Source of the DNA: a virus
Direction: 5' to 3' (one strand)
Virus record (IMG/VR): IMGVR_UViG_3300014325_000011
Span: 1-64,000 of that record
Length of the DNA: 64,000 nt
The number at the start of each line of letters is the position of its first letter. Within the stretch, counting starts at the first letter, position 1. The notes beneath the pieces were generated by a model, which was not told where the DNA came from, did no database searches, and worked only from the letters and a program-made list of their open reading frames with translations. The position numbers were made by a program, and so were the translations under genes. Below, one piece after another: positions 7,225 through 37,100 of this stretch.

Positions 7225-8104
7225 CGTCGTCACCCTGCCTGCGCGCAACCTCGGTCGCCCGCGGGAACGGCTCGTTGTCCTTCCACACCAGAAGACTGAT
7301 CGTCCGGTCCTCCAACCAAGCGTTCCAGCCCTTGATGTAGGCCGCCAGCAGCGCGCGAGTTTCCGCCTTCCGCGGCACCATCGCCTCGCGGATCAGCCGA
7401 TTCCGCAGCACCCGGATCGGGCTGTTCTCCGTCAGATCCGCACCGTCCATCAGTGGACCCCAAAACACCGAAGCCCGGTCCGGCGCCGCCTGCGCGATGA
7501 TCCAGTAGGCCGCCGACGCCGTCGAGATCCGCGCGGGGATCATCTTCCGCAGCGCCCGGCCCTGCCGGATCGCCGTGTCCAACGACTCGCCATGCTCGTC
7601 AACAAACGCCAGCACCTGCGACAACGATCCGCGCCGAGCCATGCCCTGCTTTCGGCCCAACGTGTTGTTCACATAGCCCCAGCACAACTGCGCCGTCGCC
7701 GCGATGTTGTTCGGATCGGTGACGCCGCGAAGCTGCAACACGTTGCCCGTCGTACGACTGGCACCCTGATCCATCGTGTCCTGCGACTGCGGCGGCAGAC
7801 CCACTGCCAGGACGAACGGCAACGTCACCCGGGCGCGGACCAGCGCCATCAGACGATGCTGACCATCCAGCAGCGTGCCATTGATGTCGAACCGGATCGT
7901 GTCGCCGTTGAACTGCCACTCGCCGCGGGCCATCTCCCCGGCGTAGGTGTCGATCCGGCTCGGCCGGGTCTTCCGGTTGTGCAGGTTGCGAGCCTCCAAC
8001 CAGTAGGCGGCCATCTCCGGGGAGACGTCGACGATCCGAACATCCGGCGTCGGACTGATCGTCCGGTCGATTGTGCGAAGGGGTTCGGCGTGCAGCGCGG
8101 TCAT
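7217..8104 (-). CDS. ParB-like (DGQHR) protein
   Basis: VSPEMAAYWL..N.HNR...YAGEMARGEWQFNGDTIRFD..G.LLDGQHRL; AGGAG RBS. Confidence 0.75.
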   Translation of the reverse strand: MTALHAEPLRTIDRTISPTPDVRIVDVSPEMAAYWLEARNLHNRKTRPSRIDTYAGEMARGEWQFNGDTIRFDINGTLLDGQHRLMALVRARVTLPFVLAVGLPPQSQDTMDQGASRTTGNVLQLRGVTDPNNIAATAQLCWGYVNNTLGRKQGMARRGSLSQVLAFVDEHGESLDTAIRQGRALRKMIPARISTASAAYWIIAQAAPDRASVFWGPLMDGADLTENSPIRVLRNRLIREAMVPRKAETRALLAAYIKGWNAWLEDRTISLLVWKDNEPFPRATEVARRQGDDDV

Positions 8105-8135
8105 GACAACTCCTAGAACCGTTGATGCGGGCGGG

Positions 8136-8651
8136 TTAGAAGGGAGGTTGATCCGAATACGACCCGGTGGGCGCGGGCTGTGACCACGGGTCGTCCGCGG
8201 GTGCCGGACCCTGCTGGCCATAGCCCTGGGCCGGACCCTGCGACTGCTGGCCATAACCCTGGCCGTTGTCCTGCGACGGGCCGCCGCGGGCCGCGCGCTG
8301 CACCTTCGCCGTGGCATACCTGAGACTCGGGCCGATCTCGTCGACGTCCAGCTCGAAGACGGTGCGCTTCTCACCCTCACGGGTCTCGAACGAGCGCTGC
8401 TTGAGCCGCCCCTGGACGATGACCCGGGCGCCCTTCGTCAGCGACTCCGCGACGTGCTCGGCCGCCTGCCGCCAGATCGAGCAGCGCAAGAACAGCGCCT
8501 CGCCGTCCTTATATTCGTTCGTCGCCTTGTCCAGCACCCGGGGTGTCGAGGCCACGGTGAAGCTAGCTACCGCAGCCCCGTTTGGCGTAAAGCGAAGCTC
8601 GGGATCGGATGTCAGGTTGCCCACCACTGTGATGACGGTTTCACCGGCCAT
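8136..8651 (-). CDS. ssb: Single-stranded DNA-binding protein
   Basis: [31 protein letters not shown]...; DDPW...DQPPF tail. Confidence 0.97.
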
Positions 8652-8653
8652 GT

Positions 8654-9187
8654 CTAACTCGCCTTCCTGGTTGAACGCCGACCACGCGGCGGATCGATGC
8701 GGACGGGGCCCCCGACATGACCCCACGTCCGCCCGTTGACAATGTTGGAGACGCTTGCCACGCTGACCACATATTCAACCGCCAGCGAGACGATCATCTC
8801 GCCAGCAGCGAACCGGTCCCGAATCCGGATGATGTCCTCTTCGGTCAGCTTGGCCTTTGCGTTGCGGCTGCCCCTCGCACCCCGGATGCCAGCTCGGCCC
8901 TTGAGGTGCATGTCCAGAGTGTTGTCGCGGGGCGTCCCGAGGAAGAGATGCTCTGGCCGCACACAGGGCGGGTTGTCGCAACGGTGTAGTACCCACAGAC
9001 CATCGGGGATGGGGCCGTTCGACAGCTCCCACGACACTCGATGTGCTGCCAGGCTCTCACCGTAGAAGGTGAGCTTGCCATACCCAGCCGGGGTCGTTGC
9101 TGCCGTCCACTCCCAGCACTCCGTATCCTTCTGCACTTGGTGCCAGAAGTGCTCGCTGAATCTCGCCTGCCAGCTACACTGAGCCAT
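8654..9187 (-). CDS. HNH homing endonuclease
   Basis: CWEW...GYG...AHRVSW...[22 protein letters not shown]; AKLTEED HTH tail. Confidence 0.92.
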
Positions 9188-9261
9188 GCGATACGCCTCC
9201 CTTTCAGGCTGTCGAAGTGGCCTGCGGCGGGTTCTCCGGTCCGCCGCAGGCTGCGTATAAC

Positions 9262-9618
9262 TCAGACTCGGACGGGCACCTGTCGGAGCCGTTTTCGGGC
9301 GAGGGTGCGCAGGGCAAGGCGGGTCATCTGGTTCTTCAGGTACACCGCATGTTCTCCCGCGGGAAGCGTGGCCATCAGGTTATGCATGTACCGGATGCCC
9401 CCATCCCCGTAGGCATTCCAGCCCCATGAGCAGAACCACCGATGGCCGCAGTGGGAGCAGACATACGCCGCGCACCAGCCATCCTCCCCGCGGTTCCACC
9501 ACTCGACGTCGTTCCACAAGGCCACGGCCTTCGGAACCTCCGCCTCGTCCCAGCCATACAGGCAGCCCTCGGGGCAGCGATCCGAGAACGGTGGCGGCAC
9601 GAACTCTCCCACGGCCAC
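9262..9618 (-). CDS. hypothetical Cys/Trp-rich protein
   Basis: CPEGC...CSHCGHRW; preceded by an SOS-like box and TAGAAT. Confidence 0.5.
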   Translation of the reverse strand: MAVGEFVPPPFSDRCPEGCLYGWDEAEVPKAVALWNDVEWWNRGEDGWCAAYVCSHCGHRWFCSWGWNAYGDGGIRYMHNLMATLPAGEHAVYLKNQMTRLALRTLARKRLRQVPVRV

Positions 9619-9619
9619 T

Positions 9620-9647
9620 ATTCTATTCCTCTCGAACGTCAGTTCGC
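9620..9647 (-). promoter_or_regulatory. LexA/SOS-like box (1 mismatch) plus TAGAAT -10
   Basis: Minus strand GCGAAC-TGAC-GTTCGA (9647-9632) followed by GAGGAA-TAGAAT. Confidence 0.5.
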
Positions 9648-10949
9648 CATGTCGACGAAACGCGAATAGTGGCCTTGGAACGCGACCGTCACAACACCTG
9701 TCGCCCCGTGCCGGTTCTTGTCCACAATCAGGTCTGCTTCACCGGCACGCGACGACTCCGGACTCACCGCGTCCTCACGGTGGATGAGGATGATCCCGTC
9801 GGCGTCCTGTTCGATCGCCCCCGAGTCACGCAGATCCGACTTCTGCGGACGCTTCTCGGCCCGGTGTTCTGATTGGCGGTTCAGTTGCGCCAAGGCGATG
9901 ACGGGGATCTCCAGTTCCTTCGCCATCGCCTTCAGGCCGGCGGAGATCTCCGAGACCTCGGTCTGCCGGTTCTCGCCCCGGCGCACTGGAGACATCAGTT
10001 GGAGATAGTCGACCGCAACCAGACGTAGATCCCGACGCTGCTTCAACCGCCGAGCCGACGCCCGAATCTGCGCGATCGTCAAGCCGGAGCGGTCGTCGAT
10101 GGACAGGGGTGCATCGGACAGCATCTCCAGCCAATACGAAATCCGCTCCCACTCTTCCGGCCCGACCTGACCCGAGCGAAGCGCATGCAGGCCGATGCGG
10201 GTGTCCGCGGCAAGCAGTTTCATGGCGATCTCGGCGCGGGGCATCTCCAGAGAGAAGAACGCGGCCGGCATCTTCTTGTAGACCGCGACGTGCCGCAGCA
10301 TGTCAAGTACGAGGGTGGTTTTGCCGACACCCGGCCTGGCTGCGATCACCCACAGGTGGCCCGGCTGCAATCCGGATGTGAGCGCGTCGAAGTCCGTGAA
10401 CCCAGTCGGCACGCCAGCGTGACCTGCCTTGCCCTGCTCGACATCTTCGAGTACCGAACCGAGGACATCGCCAAGGTCGACCATGGATGTGCCGGTGTCC
10501 CCCGACGACAGGGCAAGCATCTCGTCCTGCGACTGCGCGACAGCGTCGGTCGGGTCGGCGCCGGGTGCGTGTGCCCGCTGGTAGGCGCGCATCGCGGTCT
10601 CTGCCAACCCGCGTAGCGCCGCCTTCTTCGCGACGATCCCTGCGTAGTGCCCGGCGTTCGCCATCGAGGGCACCGATGCAACCAGGTCGTGCAGATAGCT
10701 CTGACCGCCAACCGTCACGAGGTCGCCACGTCGACTCAGTTCGTGGGCGACCGATAGCGGATCGACTGGCTGCCCATCCCCCCGCATCGCAACCATCGCC
10801 GCGAACACGGTGGCGTGCGCGGGGCGGAAGAACATCGGTGGTGTCATCTCGTCCGAGAGACGTTCGCACCACTGTGACGACAGCATCATCGACCCGAGCA
10901 CGGCCATCTCCGCGTCGATCGCATGCGGTGGAAGCAGGTCGTCACTCAT
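9639..10949 (-). CDS. dnaB: Replicative DNA helicase
   Basis: PPHAIDAE, Walker A AARPGVGKT, FSLEM, VDYLQL, AQLNR, DLRDSGAIEQDAD, KNRHG. Confidence 0.97.
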   Translation of the reverse strand: MSDDLLPPHAIDAEMAVLGSMMLSSQWCERLSDEMTPPMFFRPAHATVFAAMVAMRGDGQPVDPLSVAHELSRRGDLVTVGGQSYLHDLVASVPSMANAGHYAGIVAKKAALRGLAETAMRAYQRAHAPGADPTDAVAQSQDEMLALSSGDTGTSMVDLGDVLGSVLEDVEQGKAGHAGVPTGFTDFDALTSGLQPGHLWVIAARPGVGKTTLVLDMLRHVAVYKKMPAAFFSLEMPRAEIAMKLLAADTRIGLHALRSGQVGPEEWERISYWLEMLSDAPLSIDDRSGLTIAQIRASARRLKQRRDLRLVAVDYLQLMSPVRRGENRQTEVSEISAGLKAMAKELEIPVIALAQLNRQSEHRAEKRPQKSDLRDSGAIEQDADGIILIHREDAVSPESSRAGEADLIVDKNRHGATGVVTVAFQGHYSRFVDMAN

Positions 10950-11547
10950 CGCCAACCGCCGGGGTGTAGACGTCCGCAAGACCCGCGATCATTCTTCGGA
11001 TCGCGACCTGACCGTCCGGGTTCGGGGGCGGCGCCTCCGGTGGCAGAACACCCCACCCCCCGGGCAGGGCCTTCGGCTCGGCGAGGCGCGCAGCAAGCAC
11101 CGGGTATGGGGTGGTAGCCAGTTCCCGCATCGCTTCGTCTCGCGCCGCCGCATAGCCAGCGACGAACCGGCCACGCGCGTAACGGTCGTCCTCGTCGAAG
11201 ACCAGCCAGCCAACCGTCCGAGCACACGCGAGGGCCGCAGGGTGGATGGAAGGCTCCGGGCCGATGCGACGGTCCAGCCAGTGGCGGAACCTGAGCGCCT
11301 GGGCGTAGGCGGTCTCCGGGTCCGGCGGTAGCGCGCCTATCTGGTTGGCGACCCGCCGGCGAATGTCGGCCACGGCGATGAACGGACCTGTAACGGCGAA
11401 GTGCTCGTGGACTGCCGCGGTTGCCGCGTCGGCGGGGATGTCGGCGAGAGCGGCACCCCACACCTCTGTCGTGTTCTCAGCGAGCGGCATCGAAGGCGAG
11501 TAGGCCGCGATCAGGTCGATCAGCTCTTGTGTTTCGAGACTGTTCAC
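10942..11547 (-). CDS. Putative helicase loader/inhibitor (G39P-like)
   Basis: LIDLIAAY...W..ALAD...A..AV..H....F..VADIR pattern; lies between initiator and dnaB. Confidence 0.6.
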   Translation of the reverse strand: MNSLETQELIDLIAAYSPSMPLAENTTEVWGAALADIPADAATAAVHEHFAVTGPFIAVADIRRRVANQIGALPPDPETAYAQALRFRHWLDRRIGPEPSIHPAALACARTVGWLVFDEDDRYARGRFVAGYAAARDEAMRELATTPYPVLAARLAEPKALPGGWGVLPPEAPPPNPDGQVAIRRMIAGLADVYTPAVGDE

Positions 11548-12629
11548 GCGGTCTCCCCGTCGATCACGATTGGGTACAGCGACGTCTGACTAGCCGGAGG
11601 CTGACCGAGGGGCGGCATGCCAAGACGGGCCCGGTTCTCAGCCCGAATCCGCGCCGAACGCTCGGCCGCGGACTCCGGACGTGAGCCGGCGACAGCTCGC
11701 GGCCGGGCCGAACCGGGCCTACGCCCGTCGATGGCCTGACGGATGTACTTCGCGAGCAGTCCAGGACCGACATCGGCACCGGCGCGCTGGTCCTCGCGGA
11801 GAAGTTGCAGTGCGGTTCGCACTCGCTTCTCGTCGATGCCCTCGGCGAGGTGCGTCTCGATGGCTGCCGACGCCCACTCGCGTTCCTTGCGCGGAGGCGT
11901 CGACGGGAAGCTGTCGAGGTACTCGTCGAGCAGTTCGCTGCCAGTCATCGTCGCCGGAGGCAACGGGCGACGCCCGGTGGCCTGCGTATCGGCAGGTGAG
12001 GCGGGTTGCGTCCCGGTCGAGCGACGGCCAGCCAGGGAAGCGACGGTCGCTTCGGACGAAGCGTCGCCCGCTTCCGCGCGCGAAGCGGGTTCAGGTTCGG
12101 GTTCGGGTTGCTTCACGCTTCCCGAAGGGAAGCTGTGAAGCGTAGACGCTTCGCTCTGCGAAGCGAAGCCCGCTTCGTCTGTCGAAGCGTCGTTCGCTTC
12201 GATTGAAGCGTCGTTCGCTTCGTCGCTTCGTGCGTCCCGCTTCGCCCGTCGGGCCTCGCCGGACCTCTTTCCGCCGCGTCGTCCCAGCTCAGCCATGTCG
12301 ACCGACGATCGACGCACTCTCTCTGATCGTTCAGGCCGGTCTGTCGGCGCCTTCTCCGGTGCGGCGTAGTCGCCCCAGTCGTGGAACCGCCAGCCGCCGC
12401 CGTCGCATGGCTCCCACAGTCCGGCTGTCACCAGCGCCCGTGCGGCCTTCGCACCCTTCGACCCGAGCAGGCGCCGCGGATACTCCCTCGGGATGAACCC
12501 GTTGAGCCCGTTGCGGTGGGTGTAGGTGTTGGCGCAGGTGTGCAGGGTGATGCTGCACGGGTCGGCGTCGATGGCTGCCATGACCTTCGGGTGGTCGTCG
12601 AAGGTGTCGTCGTACCGCGCCCAGCTCAC
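11544..12629 (-). CDS. Phage replication initiator-like protein
   Basis: WARYDDTFDDHPKV...LVTAGLWE...W.FHDW.DY N-terminus; internal repeats; upstream of loader and dnaB. Confidence 0.7.
   Translation of the reverse strand: MSWARYDDTFDDHPKVMAAIDADPCSITLHTCANTYTHRNGLNGFIPREYPRRLLGSKGAKAARALVTAGLWEPCDGGGWRFHDWGDYAAPEKAPTDRPERSERVRRSSVDMAELGRRGGKRSGEARRAKRDARSDEANDASIEANDASTDEAGFASQSEASTLHSFPSGSVKQPEPEPEPASRAEAGDASSEATVASLAGRRSTGTQPASPADTQATGRRPLPPATMTGSELLDEYLDSFPSTPPRKEREWASAAIETHLAEGIDEKRVRTALQLLREDQRAGADVGPGLLAKYIRQAIDGRRPGSARPRAVAGSRPESAAERSARIRAENRARLGMPPLGQPPASQTSLYPIVIDGETA
12037..12243. repeat. Iteron cluster / putative replication origin inside the initiator gene
   Basis: 19 GAAGC/GCTTC pentamers in about 210 bp; five GAAGC-N7-GCTTC units. 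Confidence 0.65.
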
Positions 12630-13576
12630 TCGATCACCCCTTGGGCGATCAACTCGGTGGCGCGCTCGTCGAGACGGCGCAATGTGTTCCACACGCAGCC
12701 GGCGAAGTACGGCCACCGACTCCCGTAGGCCAGCCCCTGCTTCGCGGCGGTGACTTCCATGAGCTGGAACAGTTGCTCGGCGGGAACCCCTGCATCCATC
12801 CACCGGGACAGTTGCTGACGCTCGACGGCGGAGAGAATGGGAAGGTTGCGCGGGAAGAGGGACGTCCAATGTCTCGACAGATCGTCGAGATCTGTAAGAC
12901 GACCAGCAGAGTTGCGGCGGATCTCCTCTGCTGCAACTTGCTTAGCCCTTGCCCAGCGGAGCGCATCGGCGGCCACGTCGTCGACGATCGCCGCGTCTGG
13001 CGGAACCGAAGATTTTCCGCCGTTGCAATCGGCGCACGCGGTCACAAGGTTCGACGGATCGTTGGTGCCACCAAGGGCGCGCGGCGTCACATGGTCAACG
13101 GTCAACTGGACTTCGGGTGGCGTACGACCGCAGTACCGGCAGGCGAAGTTATCGCGCCGGAAGATTTCGTAACGGAGACGCCGGGGAACCTTCCCACCCT
13201 TGACAGCTGGTGTGGCGGGAGGAAGTTGCCACGGCCGAATGTCGGCGTAGATGACTAGGTTGGCTCCCAAGCCGTTGACTGCTCGGGCGAGGTAGCCGGC
13301 GTCGACCAGAAGTGGGAGATAGATCGCCACCTCGCTCCAGACCCGGTCCTCGTGGATCTGGTCCGTGAAGTCGTAGGCGTACCCTGGCTGGAGTTCGGAT
13401 AGAACCCAGTCCAAGTAAGCGCGCTCGGTCTGACTCAACTCGCCTTGGACAACGCGGAGCGGCGCACCCTCGAAGCTGTCGAGATCCTCGGGCGTCGCGT
13501 AGACAAGCAGATGGCTGGAGTCGCAAGAATCTTCGCAAAATTCGGCCGACTTGTCGCCAATGAAGGTTACCGGCAT
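12626..13576 (-). CDS. HNH endonuclease domain protein
   Basis: LRYEIFRRDNFACRYCG...VDHVTPRALGG.ND.SNLVTAC.DCN.GK; GAAAGG RBS. Confidence 0.88.
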   Translation of the reverse strand: MPVTFIGDKSAEFCEDSCDSSHLLVYATPEDLDSFEGAPLRVVQGELSQTERAYLDWVLSELQPGYAYDFTDQIHEDRVWSEVAIYLPLLVDAGYLARAVNGLGANLVIYADIRPWQLPPATPAVKGGKVPRRLRYEIFRRDNFACRYCGRTPPEVQLTVDHVTPRALGGTNDPSNLVTACADCNGGKSSVPPDAAIVDDVAADALRWARAKQVAAEEIRRNSAGRLTDLDDLSRHWTSLFPRNLPILSAVERQQLSRWMDAGVPAEQLFQLMEVTAAKQGLAYGSRWPYFAGCVWNTLRRLDERATELIAQGVIE

Positions 13577-13680
13577 GGTAGCCTTTCCGTAGAGCGTAGG
13601 TTGGGTTGTCCGGCGGGAACCGGATGGCACACGTGAGAGGCCCGGTCACTACCCCCCGAGGTGGCCGGGCCTCTTGCTGT

Positions 13681-17463: not shown

Positions 17464-18846
17464 GTGACTCTGACAGTTACAGACCTGTTCGCTGGGGCCG
17501 GCGGCTCATCCACGGGCATGGCGAAGGCAGGGCTGCGCGTCGTCATCGCGGCGAACCACAGCGAACTTGCGGTCCGCACCCACCAGGCGAACCACCCGGA
17601 AACCGATCATGATCTTGCGGATATCTCACAGGTTGACTTCCGCCGCTACCCGAAGACCGATTTCCTCTGGGCCAGCCCGGAATGTACGAACCACTCGTTG
17701 GCCAAGGGCCGCCGCCGTGTCACTGGCCAAGGCGACCTGTTCGGCGCCGAAGACGACGACGTCGCAATCCGATCCCGGGCGACCATGTTCGACGTCCCCC
17801 GCGCCCTCGAAGCGGGCGTGCTTCGTGGACGTCCCTACCTGGCTGGTGTCGTCGAGAACGTCGTTGACGCGGTCGACTGGATGTACTGGGACAGTTGGAT
17901 TCGTATGTTCGACGCGGCCGGTTACCACGTCCGGCCCGTATTCCTGAACTCGATGCACGCCCAAGACGGCCTCGGCGCCCTGCCCGCACCGCAGTCCCGG
18001 GACCGGTTGTACGTCGTGTTCTGGTCGAGGAAGCTCAGCCGCACCCCGGATCTTGACATCCGCCTGCCTGCCTGGTGCCCACGCTGCGAATCCACGGTCG
18101 ACGCAATCCAGTCATGGCGACGGCCTGACCGGCTGTATGGCAAGTATCGGCAGCAGTACGACTACGCCTGCCCTGAGCCGAGGTGCCGCACGGTCGTCGA
18201 ACCGGAGGTACGTACCGCCGCCGAGGTCATCGACTGGTCTGATCTCGGCGGACGTATTGGCGACCGGACGCGCCCGCTTGCCCCTGCGACGCTCGCGCGG
18301 ATCGCTGCCGGGCTGCGTAAGTTCGCCCGGCCGATGCTCACTCCGGCCGGTGGGACGTGGAACGACGGAGCGTCGTCGGTCGACGAGCCGTTCCGCACCC
18401 GGACCACAAGAGAAACCGAAGGTATCGCCTGCCCTCCGCTGATGGTCCCGACGGAGCAACGCGCCGAACCGGGGCGCACGGCGTCGGTGCTGGGACCGTG
18501 GCGGACTCAGACGACCCGCCAGGACTTGGCGCTGGCGACCCCTCCAGACGGTCATCTGCTGATGGCCTACTACGGCAACGGCACCTGCACACCGGTTGCC
18601 GCCCCAGTGCCAACGCAGCCAACCCGGGACCGTTTTGCGCTGGTCGGTGGCGAGATCGAGGTCGAGGATTGCACGTTCCGCATGTTGCAGCCGAAGGAAA
18701 TCGCCGGCGCCATGGCGTTCCCCGAGGGCTACGTTCTGCTGGGTACCAAGCGGGACAAGGTGAAGCTTCTAGGAAACGCAGTAACACCGCCTGCTGCTGA
18801 ACTGTTGATGCGCCGCCTGGTGGACATGGTCGAGGCTGCCGCATGA
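17464..18846 (+). CDS. DNA (cytosine-5)-methyltransferase, orphan
   Basis: Motif I DLFAGAGG, IV SPECTNHS, VI ENV, VIII PQSRDR, X LGNAV. Confidence 0.92.
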   Translation: MTLTVTDLFAGAGGSSTGMAKAGLRVVIAANHSELAVRTHQANHPETDHDLADISQVDFRRYPKTDFLWASPECTNHSLAKGRRRVTGQGDLFGAEDDDVAIRSRATMFDVPRALEAGVLRGRPYLAGVVENVVDAVDWMYWDSWIRMFDAAGYHVRPVFLNSMHAQDGLGALPAPQSRDRLYVVFWSRKLSRTPDLDIRLPAWCPRCESTVDAIQSWRRPDRLYGKYRQQYDYACPEPRCRTVVEPEVRTAAEVIDWSDLGGRIGDRTRPLAPATLARIAAGLRKFARPMLTPAGGTWNDGASSVDEPFRTRTTRETEGIACPPLMVPTEQRAEPGRTASVLGPWRTQTTRQDLALATPPDGHLLMAYYGNGTCTPVAAPVPTQPTRDRFALVGGEIEVEDCTFRMLQPKEIAGAMAFPEGYVLLGTKRDKVKLLGNAVTPPAAELLMRRLVDMVEAAA

Positions 18847-28230: not shown

Positions 28231-28703
28231 TGGTCGACACCGACACCGCAGTCATGACCCCACGCGGCGGTTCGGGCGTAGCCGCCCCACGTGCCGGCAG
28301 CTCGGTCTCCAAGACTGAGCCGGTCGTGCTGTCCGGGTTCGCGAACTTCGTCGCGGCGAACGCCCAGCCGATGCGCTGGCGCGACCTCGGCTGGGTTCAC
28401 AGGGCCAAGCCCGGAGAGCGTCCCCCGAAGCTCAGCGCCGAGGATCGGAAAAAGCAGGCCAGCGAAAACGGCGGCCTGTCCGACCGGGGCACATGGAATG
28501 TCCACCTCGCGGTCTTCACCGGGCTCTGCGTGGTCGGCACGGTGGCGCTCCTCATCGCCTGGACCATCAGCGTCGTCGGCTGGATCTGCCACCTGTGCTC
28601 GTCCCACACGCTGCGCCTCGCCGCCGGGCTTGTGATCGGCCTACTCGGCTGCTGGGCGGCAGCCCACTTCGGCCATGTCCACGTCCACGTGTGGCGTAGC
28701 TGA
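28230..28703 (+). CDS. membrane protein
   Basis: TAATG overlap; 2 C-terminal TM segments. Confidence 0.6.
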   Translation: MVDTDTAVMTPRGGSGVAAPRAGSSVSKTEPVVLSGFANFVAANAQPMRWRDLGWVHRAKPGERPPKLSAEDRKKQASENGGLSDRGTWNVHLAVFTGLCVVGTVALLIAWTISVVGWICHLCSSHTLRLAAGLVIGLLGCWAAAHFGHVHVHVWRS

Positions 28704-28740
28704 CCACCTCCTACGCCCTATGAGAGAAGGTCCCAATCCG

Positions 28741-28968
28741 ATGGCCAAGGTGGCTGTTGGCCTGCTCGTCACGCTGTCCGTCGGCATACCCCTCGGATTT
28801 GTCTGGCGGCGGCGTGTGCTCTGGCCCGTTGCGCTGCTGCTTGTCGTCTGCGGCATGACTCTGTGTGTCACGACCGGCTTCTACCGAGCGGGAGCGCGCT
28901 GGCAGGACGACCTGAACCAGTGGATCAGCCAGGCCCGCAAGCCGGCGATCGCGGGCAGCACACGATGA
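28741..28968 (+). CDS. small membrane protein
   Basis: GAAGG RBS; 2 TM segments. Confidence 0.55.
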   Translation: MAKVAVGLLVTLSVGIPLGFVWRRRVLWPVALLLVVCGMTLCVTTGFYRAGARWQDDLNQWISQARKPAIAGSTR

Positions 28969-29768
28969 GCGCCAAGGGCAAAGGGCGGCGGTGGCCAACG
29001 GTCAACGAGGCCGGCATCTTCGGCGTCGGCCTCGCCGCCGCCGCCTTATCCTTCGACACGTTGAAGGGCCTTGCCGGGCTGCTTGCCTACCCGTGGGCCC
29101 TGACCTACCTGTACCCACTGGCCTACGACCTGTACGGGCTGATCGTCGCCCGGGTGTGGCTTGCCGCAGGCGCCCAGTCGAAGAAGCTCCGCAACTGGGC
29201 GATGTGGAACACGATGCTGTCGATCGCTCTGTCGGTCGCCGCGAATGCCCTGTACCACGCACTCATCAACGGCCTGTGGACGAAGGTCGAGCCGGGTCTG
29301 GACGGCCAGCCGGCGCTGCACGTCGCGATTCCGGTGGTGATCGCCGCGTCGGCTATCCCACCAATCGCCCTCGGCCTGGTCATCCACCTGTACACGGTGA
29401 TGACCCGGGAACAGGTCGAGTCGGCCCAGACGGTCCTGCCAACCCCGTCTCCTACGGCAGACGGACCGATGACGGCACCATCCTTGGCGGACGCCGCCGC
29501 CGCCCGGACCAGCATGGCCGACACCGAGATCCTTGACGCAGAGGTGGTCGACGAGCTTTCCGCCACGTCGGGGTCGTCGCAGACCCGGGCGGCAATCGAA
29601 TCCCCGGAAGCGTCCAAGAAGTCCGCGGTCGTCGCCGAACTGATCCGCCTCCGCGACGAGGAAGGCGTGAGCTGGTCGAGGCGTGGACTCGTCCCCGACC
29701 TTGCCCGCCAGTTCGACGTGTCCCGTTCGCTTGTCGAGCAGGCGAAGACCGTGGCGGCGAAGGGATGA
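28965..29768 (+). CDS. DUF2637 / Spd-like membrane protein with C-terminal HTH
   Basis: AALSFDTL.GLA...W..TYLYPLAYD...LSVAANA..H...SAIPP.AL...HL; LARQFDVSRS HTH. Confidence 0.75.
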   Translation: MSAKGKGRRWPTVNEAGIFGVGLAAAALSFDTLKGLAGLLAYPWALTYLYPLAYDLYGLIVARVWLAAGAQSKKLRNWAMWNTMLSIALSVAANALYHALINGLWTKVEPGLDGQPALHVAIPVVIAASAIPPIALGLVIHLYTVMTREQVESAQTVLPTPSPTADGPMTAPSLADAAAARTSMADTEILDAEVVDELSATSGSSQTRAAIESPEASKKSAVVAELIRLRDEEGVSWSRRGLVPDLARQFDVSRSLVEQAKTVAAKG

Positions 29769-31756
29769 GACGCCTTCTGGCGTGGGCGGCGGCGCTGGTC
29801 ATTGTGGTCGGCGCCGCCAGTCCGCTCGCGCTCGCCACCCCGGCCCACGCGGACGGCGTCAACGTCGGTGCCGCGATTGCCTTCGCGCGGGCGCAGGTCG
29901 GCAAGCCCTACGTGCTCGGTGCGAACGGGCCGAACTCGTGGGACTGCTCCAGCCTCGTCCAACATGCCTACGCCGCCGCCGGCCTCGCCCTGCCGCGGGT
30001 GACCACAGAGCAGATCGGCGCCGCCGGCTGGGTACCCCTCTCGCAGATCCAGCCCGGCGACCTTGTGTTCCGCTCTGGGTCCGAGGCCGAGAAGCCTGGC
30101 CATGTCGGTCTGTACGCAGGCGGCGGGCAGGTCATCGAAGCCAAGGGCTCCGCCTGGGGCACCGTCGTCACCCCCCTGTCGGTGTGGCATCCCCTCGCGG
30201 TGATCCGCCCCGGCGCGCCGGGCGTCAACGGCTTCATCGACCAGGCTGCGGCCCGGACCGGTGTTCCCCGGGATCTCCTGCGTGCCCAGATTTGGCATGA
30301 GTCCGGCTTCAACCCGACGATCGGTTCACCTGCCGGCGCGCAGGGCATCGGCCAGTTCATGCCCACCACTTGGAACGACGGGCACGGCGGCGGCCGTGGG
30401 GTCGACGGCAACGGCGACGGGAAGAGGAACATCCTCGACCCGGCCGACGCCATCCCTGCGATGGCTGACATGGACGCCGACCTGATCCGCGCCAACAACG
30501 GCGACATCGGCATGGCCCTGGCCGCGTACAACGCCGGACAGGGAGCCGTCAACAAGTTCCACGGCATCCCGCCTTACACAGAGACCCAGAACTACGTCAC
30601 GAACATCCTTGCCTCCGCAGACCTGAAACCCGGCCGGATCGACCTCCATCCCACCGCGCCACCGGCCCCGCCGATCGCCACACTGGTCCGGGAAGCGGCC
30701 ATCGCCGCACTGCCCACACCGGTACTTCCCACCAGCGTTGTGGACTGGGTAGGAGACCTCACCTGGGCTCTACTCACCATCGCCGCCGGGCTGACGCTTC
30801 TTCGCTGGCTCGCCCCGCATCTCTACACAGCATGGAAGGCCCGCGCGCAGAAAGCCACACGCCGCATGTACGCCACAGTCCGTACCCGGCCAAGGCCACA
30901 GCGCAGCACACCGACCGCCCGGTGGATCGCGCGGGAGTACACCGCGCGGGCCACAGTCGCCGCGGAACGAGGTGCGGTCAAGGGTGCGGCGATCCGCGAC
31001 GGCCGGGCCTATCGCCACACGCGCCTTGCTGTCACCACACGGCGCGCCCAGCCAACACCACACCGCTCCGGACGAGCACCGCATAGGCCGCCGCTGACTC
31101 GCCACACCACACCCGGCAGCACACAGGGTCGCCCCGTCATCCTCGCCGTCCTGTCCGGGCTGCGGTCAGGACTCGGCTGGCTCGCCACACTGCGCCGGCC
31201 CCCGAACACCACACCGCTTCCGAACACCACACAACCCGGGTCGACACCACATGCCGGAAGGCCACACGCTTACGCGCCCCCGCCGAACACCACACCCACC
31301 CCTCCGGCCGACACCACACCCCTCGTTGGAGTGGTCGAAGCCAGACCACACCGCCCTGACTGGACACCGCACACCAGGAGCCGACCCATGGACCTGCCCA
31401 CCCCGCTGTACAACGCGAAGTGGCGCGAACATCTGACGAACCCCAGCTTCGAGGCCGGTCTCCAGACCCGGCATGCGATCACCTCCCTCGAACTCGACTA
31501 CACACACGAGGTCGACGCCGTCGCCGAATACCTCATGGAGCTGTGCTCGGGCCTGTCCGAAGCACTCACCGTCTATCACGACGAGGTGCATGTCCGCGAC
31601 TACGACGAGTCGATCGTCGTCGACATCGCCGCTGCCGCCGAAGACCTCAACAGAGCCGCGAACAACCTGTTCGCAGCCCACAAGGCGTTCCCCGAGAAGC
31701 ACCCGGACTACTTCAAGGTCAAGGGCGCCCGCGGCATCGAACGCATCGGCGCCTGA
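29765..31756 (+). CDS. Secreted NlpC/P60 + lytic transglycosylase protein with TM and a long repeat-encoded extension
   Basis: Signal peptide; GKPYVLGANGPNSWDCSSLV...PGDL...GHVGLY; ESGFNP...AGAQGIGQFMP.TW...ALAAYNAG...ETQNYV; possible separate start at 31388 (AGGAG RBS). Confidence 0.85.
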   Translation: MRRLLAWAAALVIVVGAASPLALATPAHADGVNVGAAIAFARAQVGKPYVLGANGPNSWDCSSLVQHAYAAAGLALPRVTTEQIGAAGWVPLSQIQPGDLVFRSGSEAEKPGHVGLYAGGGQVIEAKGSAWGTVVTPLSVWHPLAVIRPGAPGVNGFIDQAAARTGVPRDLLRAQIWHESGFNPTIGSPAGAQGIGQFMPTTWNDGHGGGRGVDGNGDGKRNILDPADAIPAMADMDADLIRANNGDIGMALAAYNAGQGAVNKFHGIPPYTETQNYVTNILASADLKPGRIDLHPTAPPAPPIATLVREAAIAALPTPVLPTSVVDWVGDLTWALLTIAAGLTLLRWLAPHLYTAWKARAQKATRRMYATVRTRPRPQRSTPTARWIAREYTARATVAAERGAVKGAAIRDGRAYRHTRLAVTTRRAQPTPHRSGRAPHRPPLTRHTTPGSTQGRPVILAVLSGLRSGLGWLATLRRPPNTTPLPNTTQPGSTPHAGRPHAYAPPPNTTPTPPADTTPLVGVVEARPHRPDWTPHTRSRPMDLPTPLYNAKWREHLTNPSFEAGLQTRHAITSLELDYTHEVDAVAEYLMELCSGLSEALTVYHDEVHVRDYDESIVVDIAAAAEDLNRAANNLFAAHKAFPEKHPDYFKVKGARGIERIGA

Positions 31757-32183
31757 CCGTCACCACACAGAACGTCCGACCTTCGAGAGGCCCGACCGCA
31801 CATGTCACCGGAGCCCCGCGCCCAGCTCGCCGTCACCACACGGCGCACCACCCCTGCCCGGGAACACCACACCCCCGCTCGCCACACCACACCGAGGTTC
31901 CGTCTCGCTGTGGCCGCACCCTCCGTGGCTGTGGTCGCCGCGGCGGTGGCCGGTGTGGTGATCGGCCTGTGGTGGGTCGTGCTGCTGTGTGGTGTTCTCG
32001 CGGTCACCACGGTCGGGTTGGTAACGGCCCGGCGGGGTGTGGCCACAGGGCTCCGCCGGGAACTCGTCACCGCCGCGGCTGGTGTGGTGACGGTCGCCGT
32101 TGCTGCGGCGGCCGGTGTGGTGATCCATCTTGCGATCCCCATCGTCATCCTCACTATCGGGGCAACGGTGCGGATCACCACAC
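31033..32183. repeat. CACCACAC octamer cluster
   Basis: 12 exact forward copies and 4 exact reverse (GTGTGGTG) copies, plus variants. Confidence 0.85.
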
Positions 32184-33721
32184 ACCCGACCACACGGGCT
32201 CGCCGTGAAGCCGAGAAGGCCACACAGGCCCGCCAGGCTGAGCTTGTGGCCTACGCCGACGACTGGCCACGCATCGTCCGTCTCGCGAAGCTTCCGAAGG
32301 ATGTTCTTCTCAACGGTCCGGTCATCGACCGCGCCCCGCTCGGACGTACCTACCGGGTCTGCACCCGCAAGGAAGACGGCGACATCGGCTTCCTCGCGGG
32401 CATGGTGCCCGGTCTGACCGTGGCCCTAGATCAGCCCTGGGGTGCGGTCACTGTCGAGGTGTCGAACAAGTGGCCGCGGGAGGCGTTCGTCCACGTCAAC
32501 GACGGCGATCCGCAGGAAGTCGCCCGCGCCACCACCGAGATCCGGCCTGTCGACACGATCGTCGACACGGAACTGTTCGTCGGCGCCTACCGGGCCGACG
32601 GGTCACCGTATGCGCTGCGCTGGTTCGACTCGGAGGTTGGCACCCGCCATCAGATGTCGGTTGGCGACATGGGCATGGGCAAGTCGTCGATCAACATTCG
32701 TGCGTTTGCCCAGCTCCAGGACGCCAGAGACTGGACGATCGTCTGTATCGACGGCGCCCGACGAGACTTCGGCCCGTGGGCGAAAGCGGGGGCCTTCTTC
32801 CGCTACGCCACCGACCCGGCGGACGCCCTGAACATCCTCCTGACCTTGGAGTATGTCCTCGAAGGCCGCGAGCAGTTCATGGACGACAACGGCTGGCGAG
32901 TATGGCAGCCATCGGCCCTGCACCCGGTCCTCGTCGTACTCATCGAAGAAATTGCCAAGTATGCGGAGCATCCCGTTGTGGGCCGGAAGATTCAAAGCAT
33001 TTTGGCCCGTTCGTCGAAGCGGATGCGCGCTGCCGGCATCAAGTTTGTGACCTCCACGCAGACAGGCACAGGCGGCGGTGTTGGCGGCTACGAGTTCCGG
33101 CGGATGATGCAGGACCGGCTGCACTTCTACTCAGTCGAGTCGACAGGGTTTCTGGTCCGCTCGAAGCCTGCCTGGCCGGGAGACATTGGCGAGTTCGCCG
33201 GCTACCTGTTCGCCGAGTCGCTTCGCGAGAAGACCGGGATGCTCATCAAGGCGGCGTGGACGCCGGACGAGGACCGGCCGGACATCATCGCGAACATCGC
33301 CGCGCACATCGCCCGTCCGGAGGATGAATGGCTGGCCGCCGAGCAGGCCCGGGTCCGTGCGGAAATGCCCGCCGACGACGCTCCCGCCACTCCGGCATCC
33401 GCCGTTCCCGCCTCTGCGGATACGCAAACTGTCGAGGGCGAGTACACGGTCCTGTCGGTCCACAAGCCGCCCGTGAAGACCCTCCCCCCGAAGGCGCCGG
33501 AGATGACGTGGGACCAGGCCAGGCGGACTTTGAATGCCATGGTCGAGGATGCGAAGGAACGCGGGGTGGTGATGAAGGAGATCGAGGCCGTGACGGGGCG
33601 GAAGCGCACGTGGATTCGAGACAATCTGACGAATCCGGCGATCGAAGCAGGGTCGATTGTGTGTGTCCGCTCGGGTCGGGATCATCGGTATACGGCTGTC
33701 GAGTACGCCTCCGCCGCATGA
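31802..33721 (+). CDS. TraB/FtsK-SpoIIIE-like conjugative DNA translocase
   Basis: N-terminal TM helices; Walker A GDMGMGKS; Walker B LVVLIEE; RAAGI.FV.STQ; C-terminal wHTH-like domain. Confidence 0.8.
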   Translation: MSPEPRAQLAVTTRRTTPAREHHTPARHTTPRFRLAVAAPSVAVVAAAVAGVVIGLWWVVLLCGVLAVTTVGLVTARRGVATGLRRELVTAAAGVVTVAVAAAAGVVIHLAIPIVILTIGATVRITTHPTTRARREAEKATQARQAELVAYADDWPRIVRLAKLPKDVLLNGPVIDRAPLGRTYRVCTRKEDGDIGFLAGMVPGLTVALDQPWGAVTVEVSNKWPREAFVHVNDGDPQEVARATTEIRPVDTIVDTELFVGAYRADGSPYALRWFDSEVGTRHQMSVGDMGMGKSSINIRAFAQLQDARDWTIVCIDGARRDFGPWAKAGAFFRYATDPADALNILLTLEYVLEGREQFMDDNGWRVWQPSALHPVLVVLIEEIAKYAEHPVVGRKIQSILARSSKRMRAAGIKFVTSTQTGTGGGVGGYEFRRMMQDRLHFYSVESTGFLVRSKPAWPGDIGEFAGYLFAESLREKTGMLIKAAWTPDEDRPDIIANIAAHIARPEDEWLAAEQARVRAEMPADDAPATPASAVPASADTQTVEGEYTVLSVHKPPVKTLPPKAPEMTWDQARRTLNAMVEDAKERGVVMKEIEAVTGRKRTWIRDNLTNPAIEAGSIVCVRSGRDHRYTAVEYASAA

Positions 33722-33749
33722 TCGTTAACCCCACTCCCCCACCGGGGGT

Positions 33750-33862
33750 GGCTGCACGCTGCGTGATGCTGCCGGACCCTGCCGTTGATCTACCGTCTCG
33801 CGCACGCGCGCGCGTAAGGGTGCCTGTGGCAGGGTCCACGGCAGCGGCAGCGGCAGCATCCC
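33750..33862. repeat. clt-like locus: nested inverted repeats and GGCAGC tandem repeats after traB
   Basis: GATGCTGCCG/CGGCAGCATC; GGACCCTGCC/GGCAGGGTCC; (CGGCAG)x3; central CGCGCACGCGCGCGCG. Confidence 0.55.
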
Positions 33863-33870
33863 AGTAGGGG

Positions 33871-34125
33871 CTATCCGTCACTCTCCGTAGCAGACTCCGG
33901 GGGTTGGTGAGTCTGGTTCCGCGCCGCGTTCGCCGCCGCGACGACCCGCTGAACCGTCTTCCGCGTAATGCTGAGAATGTCCGCGATCTCGTCGTAGTCG
34001 AGCCCGGCGGACACCGCGGCCAGGATCGCGGGGTCCCGCTCCGAGGTGTATTCGCGGTGCAGGTCGGCGAGTCGTCTGAGGTTCGCTCGCGTGGTGTCGG
34101 CGCTGGCCGGTGGGGGAGTGGTCAC
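33871..34125 (-). CDS. Small HTH repressor-like protein
   Basis: RDPAILAAVSAGLDYDEIADILSITRKTVQRVV. Confidence 0.7.
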   Translation of the reverse strand: MTTPPPASADTTRANLRRLADLHREYTSERDPAILAAVSAGLDYDEIADILSITRKTVQRVVAAANAARNQTHQPPESATESDG

Positions 34126-34147
34126 AGAGGCGAGTCTACCGGGCGGG

Positions 34148-34185
34148 ACCACACATGGGACATGATGTCCCATGTGTGGTATGGT
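34148..34185. promoter_or_regulatory. Perfect 16-bp-arm palindromic operator overlapping a TG-N-TATGGT -10
   Basis: ACCACACATGGGACAT-G-ATGTCCCATGTGTGGT (34148-34180) between divergent genes. Confidence 0.7.
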
Positions 34186-34191
34186 GGAGAT

Positions 34192-37100
34192 GTGAGCGAG
34201 AACCGGCATCCCGAAGGGCTGCTACCCGGCGACCTCATCGAGTCGCCGTTCCGGTGCGGCCTTCGGATGCGGTTCACCCACACCGGTATCGCGCGACTCG
34301 CCGACGCCATCGACAAGCCGAACCCGGAACTGGACCCAAACGAGCCTGTGCGGCTCGTGTTCGGCGAGGACCCGACGCATGGCGGGTTGGACCGGTGGGT
34401 GCTCGATCTGAACGGCACGGTGCGGCTTGTTGAGGCCATGCCGAGAAAGGGGGAACGGTGAACCTGACCGCAGCACGGGAGCAGGTTCTGCGCGCTGTCG
34501 CCCGGGGCGAGGTGACTCGCAACAACCGTGACGACACGCGACCCTGTTGGGATCGAGGCCGCCGGAAGGCGGTCACGGTGCAGGTGAAATGGCTCCGTAA
34601 TGCGGGGATGGTCACCTACAACGTCGACCTTCGTGCAGGGTGGACGCCGGTCACCCTCACGCCTGCCGGCCGCGAGTGGTTGGACGCCAACCCGGAGAAG
34701 GGAGCGGACTGAGATGGACACCGTGTTCGTGCTGACGTTCACCGACTGGACGAACTCCAAGAGGTGGGGTGACCGGCCGTTCGCGGCGGCCGTCTCACTG
34801 GACCTGGCGAAAGCCGATGCCGCAGATGTGGCCACGCACAGTCTGGGCGACATGGTCGTGGACGACTGGTCGGAGATCGTCGATGGCGACTGGGAGACGC
34901 CGGTGTGGGTCGCCCCGGTCGTCGAGCCGTTCGTGATGCGACGGCAGGTTGGCGTGTTCGAGATCCGCGCCTTCAAGGTTCGGGAGGGCTGAACGGTGGC
35001 CGACTTGAACTGGGTCCAGGTGGGCGCGAAGGTCGCCAGCATGGGCCACACCTCGCTGAGCATCACAACCGTTGAGAAGATCACCGCAACGCAGATCGTC
35101 CTGGCGAACGGAAGCCGTTACTCGCGCAACACGGGCCGCAAGGTAGGCGCCACCGCCTACGACACGCACGAGCTGCTTCCGGTCGACCACCCGCGGATCC
35201 GCGATCGTCGAATCCGCGCCCAGATCCGCCAGCTCGGACACAAGGTCGACGAGCTGTGTCTCGGCATTAAAAGCAGCGACGAGGCCGCGTCGGTGCTGGC
35301 CGAGGTTGAGAAGGCGGTTGCGGCGACCCGTAAGCGAATCACTGAACTTGGAGGGGAGAGCTGATGGACCCGCTGTTCGTGCTGTCCCATGTGGCCTACA
35401 CCGGGTACACGGTCGGATCGGTCTACCCGTTTCGCTCGCTCGCCGGCGCGCAGAAAGCGGCTGACAACTGGGCTGAGGACGTGTCTGGCACGCCGACAGG
35501 TGAGTTCGACGCCTGGCGCGGCTGGGAGCACATCGACGGCGACGACTGGGACCGCACGATGTGGCGCCGCCCGCTGTTCTACAAGGGTGCCGAAGTGGGC
35601 GCGCTGGAGATCGTCCAGTTCGACGAGATCGGCGACTAGCCATGCAGCGCGGCGGCCGTACCGGCGGCGTGTCCGACTGGTCGGCCGGCCGGATACACGG
35701 ACGGTCGGCCAGCCGCGCCGCATGGAGACAACAGGCAGTCGACGACCAGATGGGGGAGGGCATGTTCTTCGCCGGTGACGAGTATGCGGGCGACGAGGTC
35801 ACCTCGGGGCCGTACAGCGGTCTGGATGACCCGGACGCCGACGACTACCAGTACGACGATCTTGACGCCGATGTGGCCGACGGCTGGGACTACGACCGCG
35901 AGTACGACGACAACGAGGGGGACGACTGATGGGACTCGACATGGCGAAGGTTCGCGAACTCGCGGACGCGGCTGGTGACAGCGGCGACGCCGTGTTCCAA
36001 CTTGGCCAGGAGTTGCTGGGCGCCGAGTACCGGATCGACCGGTCGCTTCACCAGATCCGCGCCGCCTTGGACGAGATCGACAGGGAGCGCGCCCGCGGCC
36101 GGGAGACCGGCGGCATCAACGGCCTGTCGGGAGGCGAACTGGTCGAGCTGTTGACGTCGTTGGGTGAGCGGAACGCGCTGATCCGGGCTGCGAAGCGGCT
36201 CGGCGTCGACGTGACGGCGCTCTGAGGGCTGACATGGACGCACAGGCGGCGGCTGTCGCCCGGGTTGCGGCGAAGAGTCGCCAGTTCTGGGAGGACCTGG
36301 AGACGGCCGCGGTCGGTCTCGGCCCGGACGAGGACCGGCCGACACCCATGGGCCACATCCCGCATCCGGGGGACAGTTGCCGCGCGGTGGGCTGTCCGGG
36401 TGTCGACGGCTACCGGACAGGCGACTGGGGCGACCTGTACGGCGATGTGGGCGACGACGAAGACAACGGGCCCTGCGATTTCGCCTGGGAGGGCGAATGG
36501 CCCGGTGTTGACGGCCCGGTGCTCGTCTGCCAAACCCACGGACAGAAGTCGCCCTGCGAGCACAGCCCGGAGTTCGACGCGTACGAGCGGGAGTGGCCTC
36601 ACCGTCCGTTCGACGTGAGCGACTACCCGCCGAAGAGGGTCTGAGTAAGGAGCCTTCGCCCCGCCGTGAGCGTGGGGTGTGAAACCCGGCGAAGGCGCGC
36701 GGACAGACACAGGACTGAGGAGGAAAAGTGTTCGAAGATCCATCGGGCAGCCTTCGGGACGCCATCAGCGCCATCAGCCTAGGTCCACATCCGGGCGACC
36801 CCGAGTGGCTGGCCGACTGTGTGGGGAACGACCGCCAAGCTGACATCAAAGTCGGGTCGGCGGTCACGCCGAACCTTCGGCCGGGAGTGGATGCGCGTCG
36901 CGCGCCGGTCGGGGTTGTGCTGTGGCGGGAGGTGAAGTTCGGCGTCGGGTACTGCGGCGTGCGCTGGGGCGACGGCCGCGAAGGTCAGGCGCCTGCCTGG
37001 TCGCTGCGGATCGCCTGACGAGCGCAGAACCTCTGGCGCGCTGATTCAAAGCGCCGCCGGGTGGACCCGGGGCAGAGGCACGTAGACAACAGGAACGATC

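Follow-up and report, generated by a model that had tools for sequence, protein, structure and literature searches.

An octamer array overprinted on two genes of an actinomycete tailed phage: a candidate clt-like locus of a TraB-type DNA pump

Introduction

Why should one eight-nucleotide word, CACCACAC, recur 16 times within 1.15 kb of phage DNA, across the end of a cell wall hydrolase open reading frame (ORF) and the beginning of the gene for a DNA pump? The question is raised by the first 64 kb (hereafter the window) of the IMG/VR entry IMGVR_UViG_3300014325_000011, a single virus record of 115,125 bp (G000), in which these copies lie between positions 31033 and 32183. An initial annotation had proposed that the word is selected as DNA and represents the recognition units (TRS) of the translocase TraB, or else a centromere-like array bound by the helix-turn-helix (HTH) of a neighbouring DUF2637 protein. 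We analysed the 639-aa pump of G000 (P0002) together with homologue proteins (P0004-P0012), and compared the locus with that of G001, a complete sister phage from IMG/VR (115,477 bp) whose 13.9-kb module locus is referred to as L001; the enrichment scans cover the replicon of G000. From this analysis we put the probability at about one half that the array is a cis-acting, allele-specific binding locus of the clt/TRS type, overprinted on coding DNA and belonging to a phage TraB-type DNA-transfer module, with the winged helix of the pump as its candidate reader.

Results

All 16 positions initially annotated for CACCACAC, 12 forward and 4 reverse, proved exact, and they hold all but three of the 19 copies in the whole G000 replicon. 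The 64-kb window contains 18 copies, compared with 3.5 +/- 2.2 (maximum 9) in dinucleotide shuffles. When both encoded proteins were kept and codons were drawn according to the usage of the replicon, the mean fell to 2.0 copies and the maximum in 5000 sequences was 7; permuting the own codons of each ORF gave a mean of 2.9 (maximum 8), and local Markov models of 31000-32200 gave means of 0.47, 1.23 and 3.14 at orders 1, 2 and 3, respectively. The several one-mismatch variants mentioned earlier amount to 13 in 30500-32600, and together with the exact copies they span about 1.6 kb, a clustering of short words as found in clt/TRS loci. In an unbiased whole-genome scan of 8-mers, CACCACAC formed the top non-simple cluster of G000, and in G001 the TCCGCA family ranked first of all clusters. 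The enrichment that had been estimated roughly from composition is thus upheld by a codon-aware expectation of about 2 copies and by the scan of the whole replicon. The sole cluster ranking above the array in that scan is a dense repeat of the GGC/GCC trinucleotide type at 67.7-69 kb of G000, which probably encodes a Gly/Ala-rich structural protein.

The word also governs codon choice. Thr-Thr pairs are written ACC-ACA in 11 of 15 cases in the hydrolase and pump ORFs versus 4 of 134 elsewhere, and ACA accounts for 21 of the 54 Thr codons in the hydrolase ORF versus 9% elsewhere, in agreement with the earlier remark that rare ACA codons are forced. At -1, every one of the 16 array copies has A or T (chance 1.8e-8), against C or G in all three copies elsewhere, and the base at -2 is mostly a purine in the array; the full site is therefore longer than the octamer, [AG][AT]CACCACAC, or about 10 bp. 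A by-product of low-complexity peptide repeats (Thr-Thr-Pro linkers) or of slippage, having no function at the DNA level, might be suspected from the common phase (C-ACC-ACA-C, giving x-Thr-Thr-x) of nine among the 11 forward copies in coding sequence, and from the encoded tails, which are disordered and basic in all ten full-length homologues of P0002 (31-36% identity). Yet, as had been noted, no codon phase and neither strand is without copies, and one copy (31761) lies in the intergenic gap; the four reversed copies encode Gly-Val-Val, the base at -1 is constrained outside codon logic, and synonymous nulls yield about 2 copies instead of 16. In L001 the word TCCGCA is likewise found in all phases, on both strands and in the gap, and the peptides over the array differ completely between the two phages while the layout is kept. 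These observations largely refute the peptide by-product, to which we would give hardly any chance, and the codon-aware nulls, the forced ACC-ACA pairs, the gap and reverse copies and the A/T at -1 make it well supported that selection acts on the array DNA and not on the peptide, as had been supposed.

G000 is a tailed phage of actinomycetes, with genes for a tape-measure protein, a tail tube, a GH25 lysin and DnaB, and it is syntenic with G001, most proteins being 60-100% identical. DNA similarity between the two is absent exactly over window positions 30677-33715, that is from array I (the upstream part of the array) to the pump stop codon; the flanks are 77.5% identical in DNA over the catalytic part of the hydrolase and 82% identical directly after the pump. 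With its 30% identity, set among flanking sequence of 77-95%, the pump is the most diverged shared protein. G001 carries the equivalent three ORFs and a two-part array with a motif-free middle, in which the word is TCCGCA. Of 58 copies counted over the 13.9-kb locus, 47 lie within 1.5 kb, four of these intergenic, and 30 of the 50 copies of STCCGCAM in the G001 genome are at the array locus. The word was exchanged together with the pump cassette between G000 and G001, and the array is physically part of that cassette. Four phages have four words, CACCACAC in G000, TCCGCA[AC] in G001, CGGGGA[AC] in the viral contig L002 and CCGTCC in G003, and, as in clt/TRS loci, the element-specific word changes with the TraB-like allele. 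CACCACAC and the CTCCGCAC variant of G001 are identical at six of eight positions, which could fit diverging homologous readers, or chance. Because the words differ in closely related phages, the reader is more likely to be encoded by the phage than supplied by the host. G004, another complete relative, lacks the module.

The downstream edge of the swapped cassette is marked by an element directly after the pump gene (33722-33890, no strand assigned), made of three nested 10-nt inverted pairs and a (CG)n stretch. It is 82% identical to G001 by blastn (33716-33888), with a mean column identity of 88% in the aligned region 33700-33900. Since it is conserved although the pumps are only 30% identical, it is not allele-specific; a terminator or module-junction element is a possible role for it, in place of an allele-specific clt.

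The array itself is written into two genes. The first is a hydrolase ORF of 663 aa (29765-31756, forward strand) with Pfam matches to NLPC_P60 (1.7e-19) and SLT (8.9e-17), in the order signal peptide, NlpC/P60, SLT transglycosylase, one transmembrane (TM) helix, basic tail and acidic 122-aa C-terminal domain. Array I (31013-31372, forward strand) follows the TM helix with seven exact copies between 31033 and 31319, all forward (31033, 31056, 31105, 31207, 31225, 31288 and 31312), and one-mismatch variants at 31013, 31100, 31117, 31183, 31245, 31344 and 31365; the Pro/Thr/Arg tail it encodes is basic, with an isoelectric point (pI) of 12. The coding signal in the GC content of third codon positions is absent over 30850-31387 and returns after 31388. 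Frame 0 across array I is open in both G000 and G001, and the other frames carry 2-6 stops, from which the hydrolase tail is very probably translated. The array had been described as lying before and within traB; its position stands, while the part before the gene is not intergenic but lies in this ORF. Amid tails that are otherwise unalignable between G000 and G001, the peptide GRPHAYAPPP (window 31251-31285; hydrolase residues ~496-506) is conserved and may be a docking motif inside the array-encoded linker.

A motif-free spacer of 440 nt separates the two parts of the array and encodes the acidic 122-aa domain (31388-31756, forward strand, with a strong coding signature), for which no family match was found in Pfam, PHROGs or Atlas. 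An in-frame ATG at 31388, with AGGAG before it, starts the spacer, and the domain may also be translated separately from this codon. The equivalent motif-free gap of the sister phage lies at L001 5503-5917. Array II (31761-32195, both strands) covers the 45 nt between the two genes and codons 1-127 of the pump gene, with nine exact copies and variants at 31846, 31880, 31967 and 32188. The forward copy at 31761 is inside the gap, those at 31834, 31865 and 31885 fall in codons of the disordered basic N-terminus of the pump, all four reverse copies (31953, 31987, 32082 and 32115) lie within TM-helix codons, and the last copy (32176, forward) corresponds to the turn after the final TM helix. In total the array reaches from 770 nt upstream of the pump gene to its codon 127. 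Copy orientation tracks what the codons can carry, suggesting that the predicted reader accepts sites in either orientation.

The pump gene (31802-33721, forward strand) encodes P0002, which profile and fold matches place among TraB/FtsK-like membrane-anchored dsDNA translocases. The AlphaFold2 model (predicted local distance difference test, pLDDT, 82.5) comprises a disordered basic tail, four TM helices, a motor, a disordered linker and a winged helix, residues 1-38 being disordered and helices extending over 33-126. The motor carries Walker A G293-K294 and E383, all three invariant. As a single sequence, P0002, the product of the gene initially called traB, reaches 17.4 bits (E 0.0032) against Pfam PF01580 FtsK_SpoIIIE and remains below the 24-bit cut-off. 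The assignment to FtsK-type motors holds by other routes: P0002 matches phrog_1358 (FtsK/SpoIIIE-like) at 4.2e-10, its family profile matches the FtsK motor structure PDB 2iuu at 7.6e-30, and Foldseek of the model ranks FtsK motors first (9e-16, TM-score 0.57-0.64 normalised to target). On these matches and on the modelled architecture, P0002 is an FtsK-type motor of a divergent subfamily. Its C-terminal winged helix (residues 560-639, encoded at 33479-33718 on the forward strand) is modelled as three helices and a beta hairpin with pLDDT above 90, the winged helix-turn-helix (wHTH) covering residues 570-632; the product of 33479-33718 has a pI of 9.0, and matches to ArsR-type wHTH profiles are marginal (E 0.005-0.07).

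A tblastn search with P0002 against 72,556 plasmids gave no match at E 1e-5, and megablast/blastn of 29700-33800 together with pump tblastn against the same plasmids and 50,697 phages gave nothing useful. A word-indexed protein search with P0002 returned only the query itself, a metagenome scan for pump relatives found only distant, non-actinomycete ones, and unbiased word scans of seven of these distant relatives revealed no word cluster above the null. No prophage relatives emerged when the genome collection was scanned with a P0002 homologue or with the tail tube, and 113 loci located via hydrolase catalytic domains held no pump gene of the P0002 family. A scan of viral contigs for three spaced copies of CACCACAC returned 119 loci, mostly unrelated. 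One of them, in G002 (173 kb), has four copies in 68 bp (7528-7595 of L253, G002:C1:106000-121000), 0.5 kb upstream of a distant pump gene (L253 8102-10468); the most clustered word at this locus is CCGGACAG, with six of eight copies just downstream of the pump gene (L253 ~10659-11860), which leaves its match to CACCACAC ambiguous.

The pump is one of two candidate readers in the module. A DUF2637-like membrane protein with an HTH-like C-terminus, read by eye, is encoded at 28863-29768 on the forward strand (Pfam E 7.9e-4; 19.8 bits, below the cut-off of 22.8), and it could read the array through this HTH, either tethering DNA at the membrane or septum for the pump or repressing the module. 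Its gene has no detectable similarity to the positional counterpart in G001 and forms a second, separate diverged block exchanged between the two phages; the covariation of word and cassette therefore does not single out the pump as reader. A DUF2637 gene also accompanies the pump in L002 and G003, scoring above the Pfam cut-off in both (4e-8 and 6e-5, respectively). It is mainly G003, which has a third module allele and a tail tube 100% identical to that of G000, that makes this protein the main rival of the pump. About 20 copies of CCGTCC are packed into 330 nt inside the linker codons of the G003 DUF2637 gene, the densest cluster, with eight more in a 310-aa ORF before the FtsK-like gene, and the family wHTH was not detected anywhere in the G003 locus, including its pump. 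The G003 module (5898-12605 of L259, G003:C1:14000-33999) consists of a WhiB-like gene, the DUF2637 gene, the 310-aa ORF and the gene for a 700-aa FtsK-like protein.

In G000, however, 800 bp of conserved hydrolase sequence lie between the DUF2637 block and the array, and no such break parts the array from the pump gene. L002, which comprises a DUF2637 gene, one unknown ORF and a wHTH-bearing pump relative, concentrates 23 of its 29 copies of CGGGGA in two clusters, the first over linker codons in the 3' portion of the pump gene and the second a little beyond the gene's end, although its DUF2637 protein has no obvious C-terminal HTH. No DNA-binding role for DUF2637 is described in the literature, and the HTH of the G000 protein was recognised by eye only. 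We therefore consider the DUF2637 protein an unlikely reader, although one to be kept in mind beside the pump. The earlier assignment of the repeats as TraB/TRS units accordingly gains from the conserved position of the array, the differing word and a swap co-extensive with the TraB-like gene, and loses from the exchange of the DUF2637 gene and from the cluster within that gene in G003.

A purely regulatory role was also considered, in which the array is an operator field that a repressor or the pump itself coats, silencing or autoregulating a toxic pump gene in a kil-kor-like manner, with no part in DNA loading. The sites straddle the pump start codon and the intergenic gap, and in plasmids traB is harmful when it escapes regulation (PMC4447253). 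A large number of phased sites would favour cooperative coating, and same-strand copies in L001 show ~10.5-bp phasing (R 0.44 against a null 99th percentile of 0.31). Nevertheless, no sigma-70-like promoter was found in 28500-34500, searches with Pfam and PHROGs found no Kor or GntR-type repressor gene in the cassette, and the sites, which run from 770 nt upstream, within another ORF, to 380 nt inside the pump gene, go far beyond what an operator needs. Such an operator field is improbable in our judgement.

Still less probable is a replication origin or partition site, made of iterons or a centromere, whose place next to the pump gene would be incidental. It was suggested by the cumulative GC skew, which in module orientation falls to its lowest value in the whole genome at the array, in G000 as in G001; the curve of G001 is a clean V that peaks at a distance of roughly half a genome. 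The C-richness of the array itself, however, contributes 225 of the 784 skew units in G000 and the minimum moves when the array is left out; with the minimum confounded by array composition, this explanation was downgraded. Ten neighbouring ORFs contain no initiator or partition genes according to Pfam and PHROGs, the array region has 68% GC, where an iteron origin would have an AT-rich unwinding element beside an initiator gene, and arrays stay beside pump genes in unrelated contexts (L002). Nothing was found in support of the centromere-like array of the initial annotation. A parS-like partition centromere was rejected on the same survey, in which none of the ten ORFs is of ParA/ParB type.

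A better and more typical origin candidate is an iteron-like tandem and dyad array beside DnaB. Window positions 12048-12250 contain four 24-bp tandem units (12133-12224), GAAGCG/CGCTTC dyads and 11 copies of CGCTTCG in 200 nt, and the tandem units sit inside an ORF on the reverse strand (11544-12869). The replication module that includes DnaB (window 6400-13600) has no counterpart at E <1e-5 in G001 (43.6-54.4 kb) and is another cassette swapped between the two phages. A gene for a C-5 cytosine DNA methyltransferase is located at window positions 17464-18846 (Pfam 8.8e-23).

Discussion

The exchange of the word with the pump cassette, taken together with the published TraB/TRS precedent, leads us to read the array as an enlarged, overprinted and 5'-placed clt-like locus. 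Its position is conserved in the sister phage, and within the G000 genome it is unique. According to this precedent, TraB binds the 8-bp TRS repeats of clt via helix alpha-3 of its wHTH and assembles there as a hexamer (PMC4447253, PMC3583192, PMC4170104). By analogy, the C-terminal winged helices of the membrane-anchored pump would recognise the ~10-bp site [AG][AT]CACCACAC, and many close sites would concentrate pump subunits until a hexameric ring could assemble on the phage's own dsDNA. The motor might then drive phage DNA through a septum or on into an adjacent cell, and the wall hydrolase and membrane proteins encoded just upstream might assist this transfer. The identity of the binding protein, the loading of a ring and any transfer of DNA are what we infer.

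Several points weigh against this reading. To the exchange of the DUF2637-like gene, the dense cluster in its G003 counterpart and the failure to detect the wHTH in the G003 locus may be added that the recognition helices of P0002 homologues show no obvious correspondence to words guessed from the peptides at their N-termini, which is a weak test. The phasing of same-strand copies in L001 speaks for a binding array, but in the window the best period, 10.25-11 bp, is not significant, as is also the case, with the same period, in L002. Set against the described clt loci used for comparison, the array belongs to a tailed phage of 115 kb and is placed before the pump gene and over its start instead of 3' or downstream of the gene; it extends over 1.15 kb with 16 exact copies (47 copies in G001) instead of 54-175 bp with up to 9 repeats; and it mixes 12 forward and 4 reverse copies, direct repeats being expected of a clt.

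A wider scenario may be considered tentatively, and we hold it to be doubtful. The temperate actinomycete phages of this group would move their own dsDNA genome between hyphal compartments or cells without virions by means of a plasmid-type pump made of a single protein, with the word array as address label, and the exchange of pump and word would create private, mutually exclusive transfer specificities that block mobilisation or hitch-hiking of a co-resident relative. If the array does load a phage-borne pump of the TraB type, actinomycete tailed phages would be able to spread without virions as well, by a second route taken over from conjugative plasmids. G000 and G001 are a natural specificity-swap pair, with a common backbone and a differing pump allele and word, and are suited to reciprocal tests of binding and transfer. 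The locus is also a clear case of dense predicted protein-binding sites overprinted on two genes, where the sites dictate rare codons and even amino acids of disordered tails, and it can serve annotation as well as the modelling of dual coding.

Among known systems, KOPS and SRS, the FtsK orienting polar sequences and SpoIIIE recognition sequences, are 8-bp asymmetric sites read by the gamma domains (C-terminal winged helix) of FtsK/SpoIIIE. They are dispersed genome-wide with a polarity towards dif, whereas the phage array is a single local cluster with orientation set by codons. The Streptomyces plasmid-phage pZL12 (Zhong et al. 2010, cited in PMC3583192 and PMC4487206) is reported to be a ParAB plasmid-prophage with particle genes and a tra gene needed for conjugal transfer. 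Like G000 it would be an actinomycete element combining phage particle genes with a tra gene; no comparable overprinted array was found in the sources consulted, and no similarity of P0002 to pZL12 Tra was detected. No paper on phage-borne TraB-like pumps with clt-like arrays was found in the literature.

The closest likeness is to the clt/TRS of Streptomyces plasmids and actinomycete integrative and conjugative elements (pSVH1, pJV1, pWTY27 and pIJ101), in which clustered words of 7-9 bp also adjoin or overlap the gene of an FtsK-like, membrane-anchored wHTH translocase. The words are element-specific there as here, with nine copies of CCGCACA[CG][CG] in pJV1 and TGACACC in pWTY27, and the clt of pWTY27, located at the 3' end of tra and after it, reaches 16 bp into the coding sequence (PMC4447253, PMC3583192, PMC4170104). 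The pJV1 repeat CCGCACA and the sister-phage word TCCGCA[AC] have CCGCA in common. The phage array differs in being split around a motif-free 440 nt and almost wholly overprinted on two ORFs, and its pump is only distantly related to plasmid TraB. Overprinting of this kind is known from the SpdA-sps system of Streptomyces plasmids, where binding repeats within the codons of the spread gene spdA likewise impose a repeated peptide motif, SRDD/E; sps is a 12-bp palindrome in 2-3 copies and conserved across plasmids, whereas the phage word is asymmetric, present in 16-47 copies and different between sister phages (PMC4170104). The clt/TRS site type is thus already known, and what is new at the present locus is its phage setting, the overprinted two-part layout at the 5' side, the size of the array and the natural swap of the cassette.

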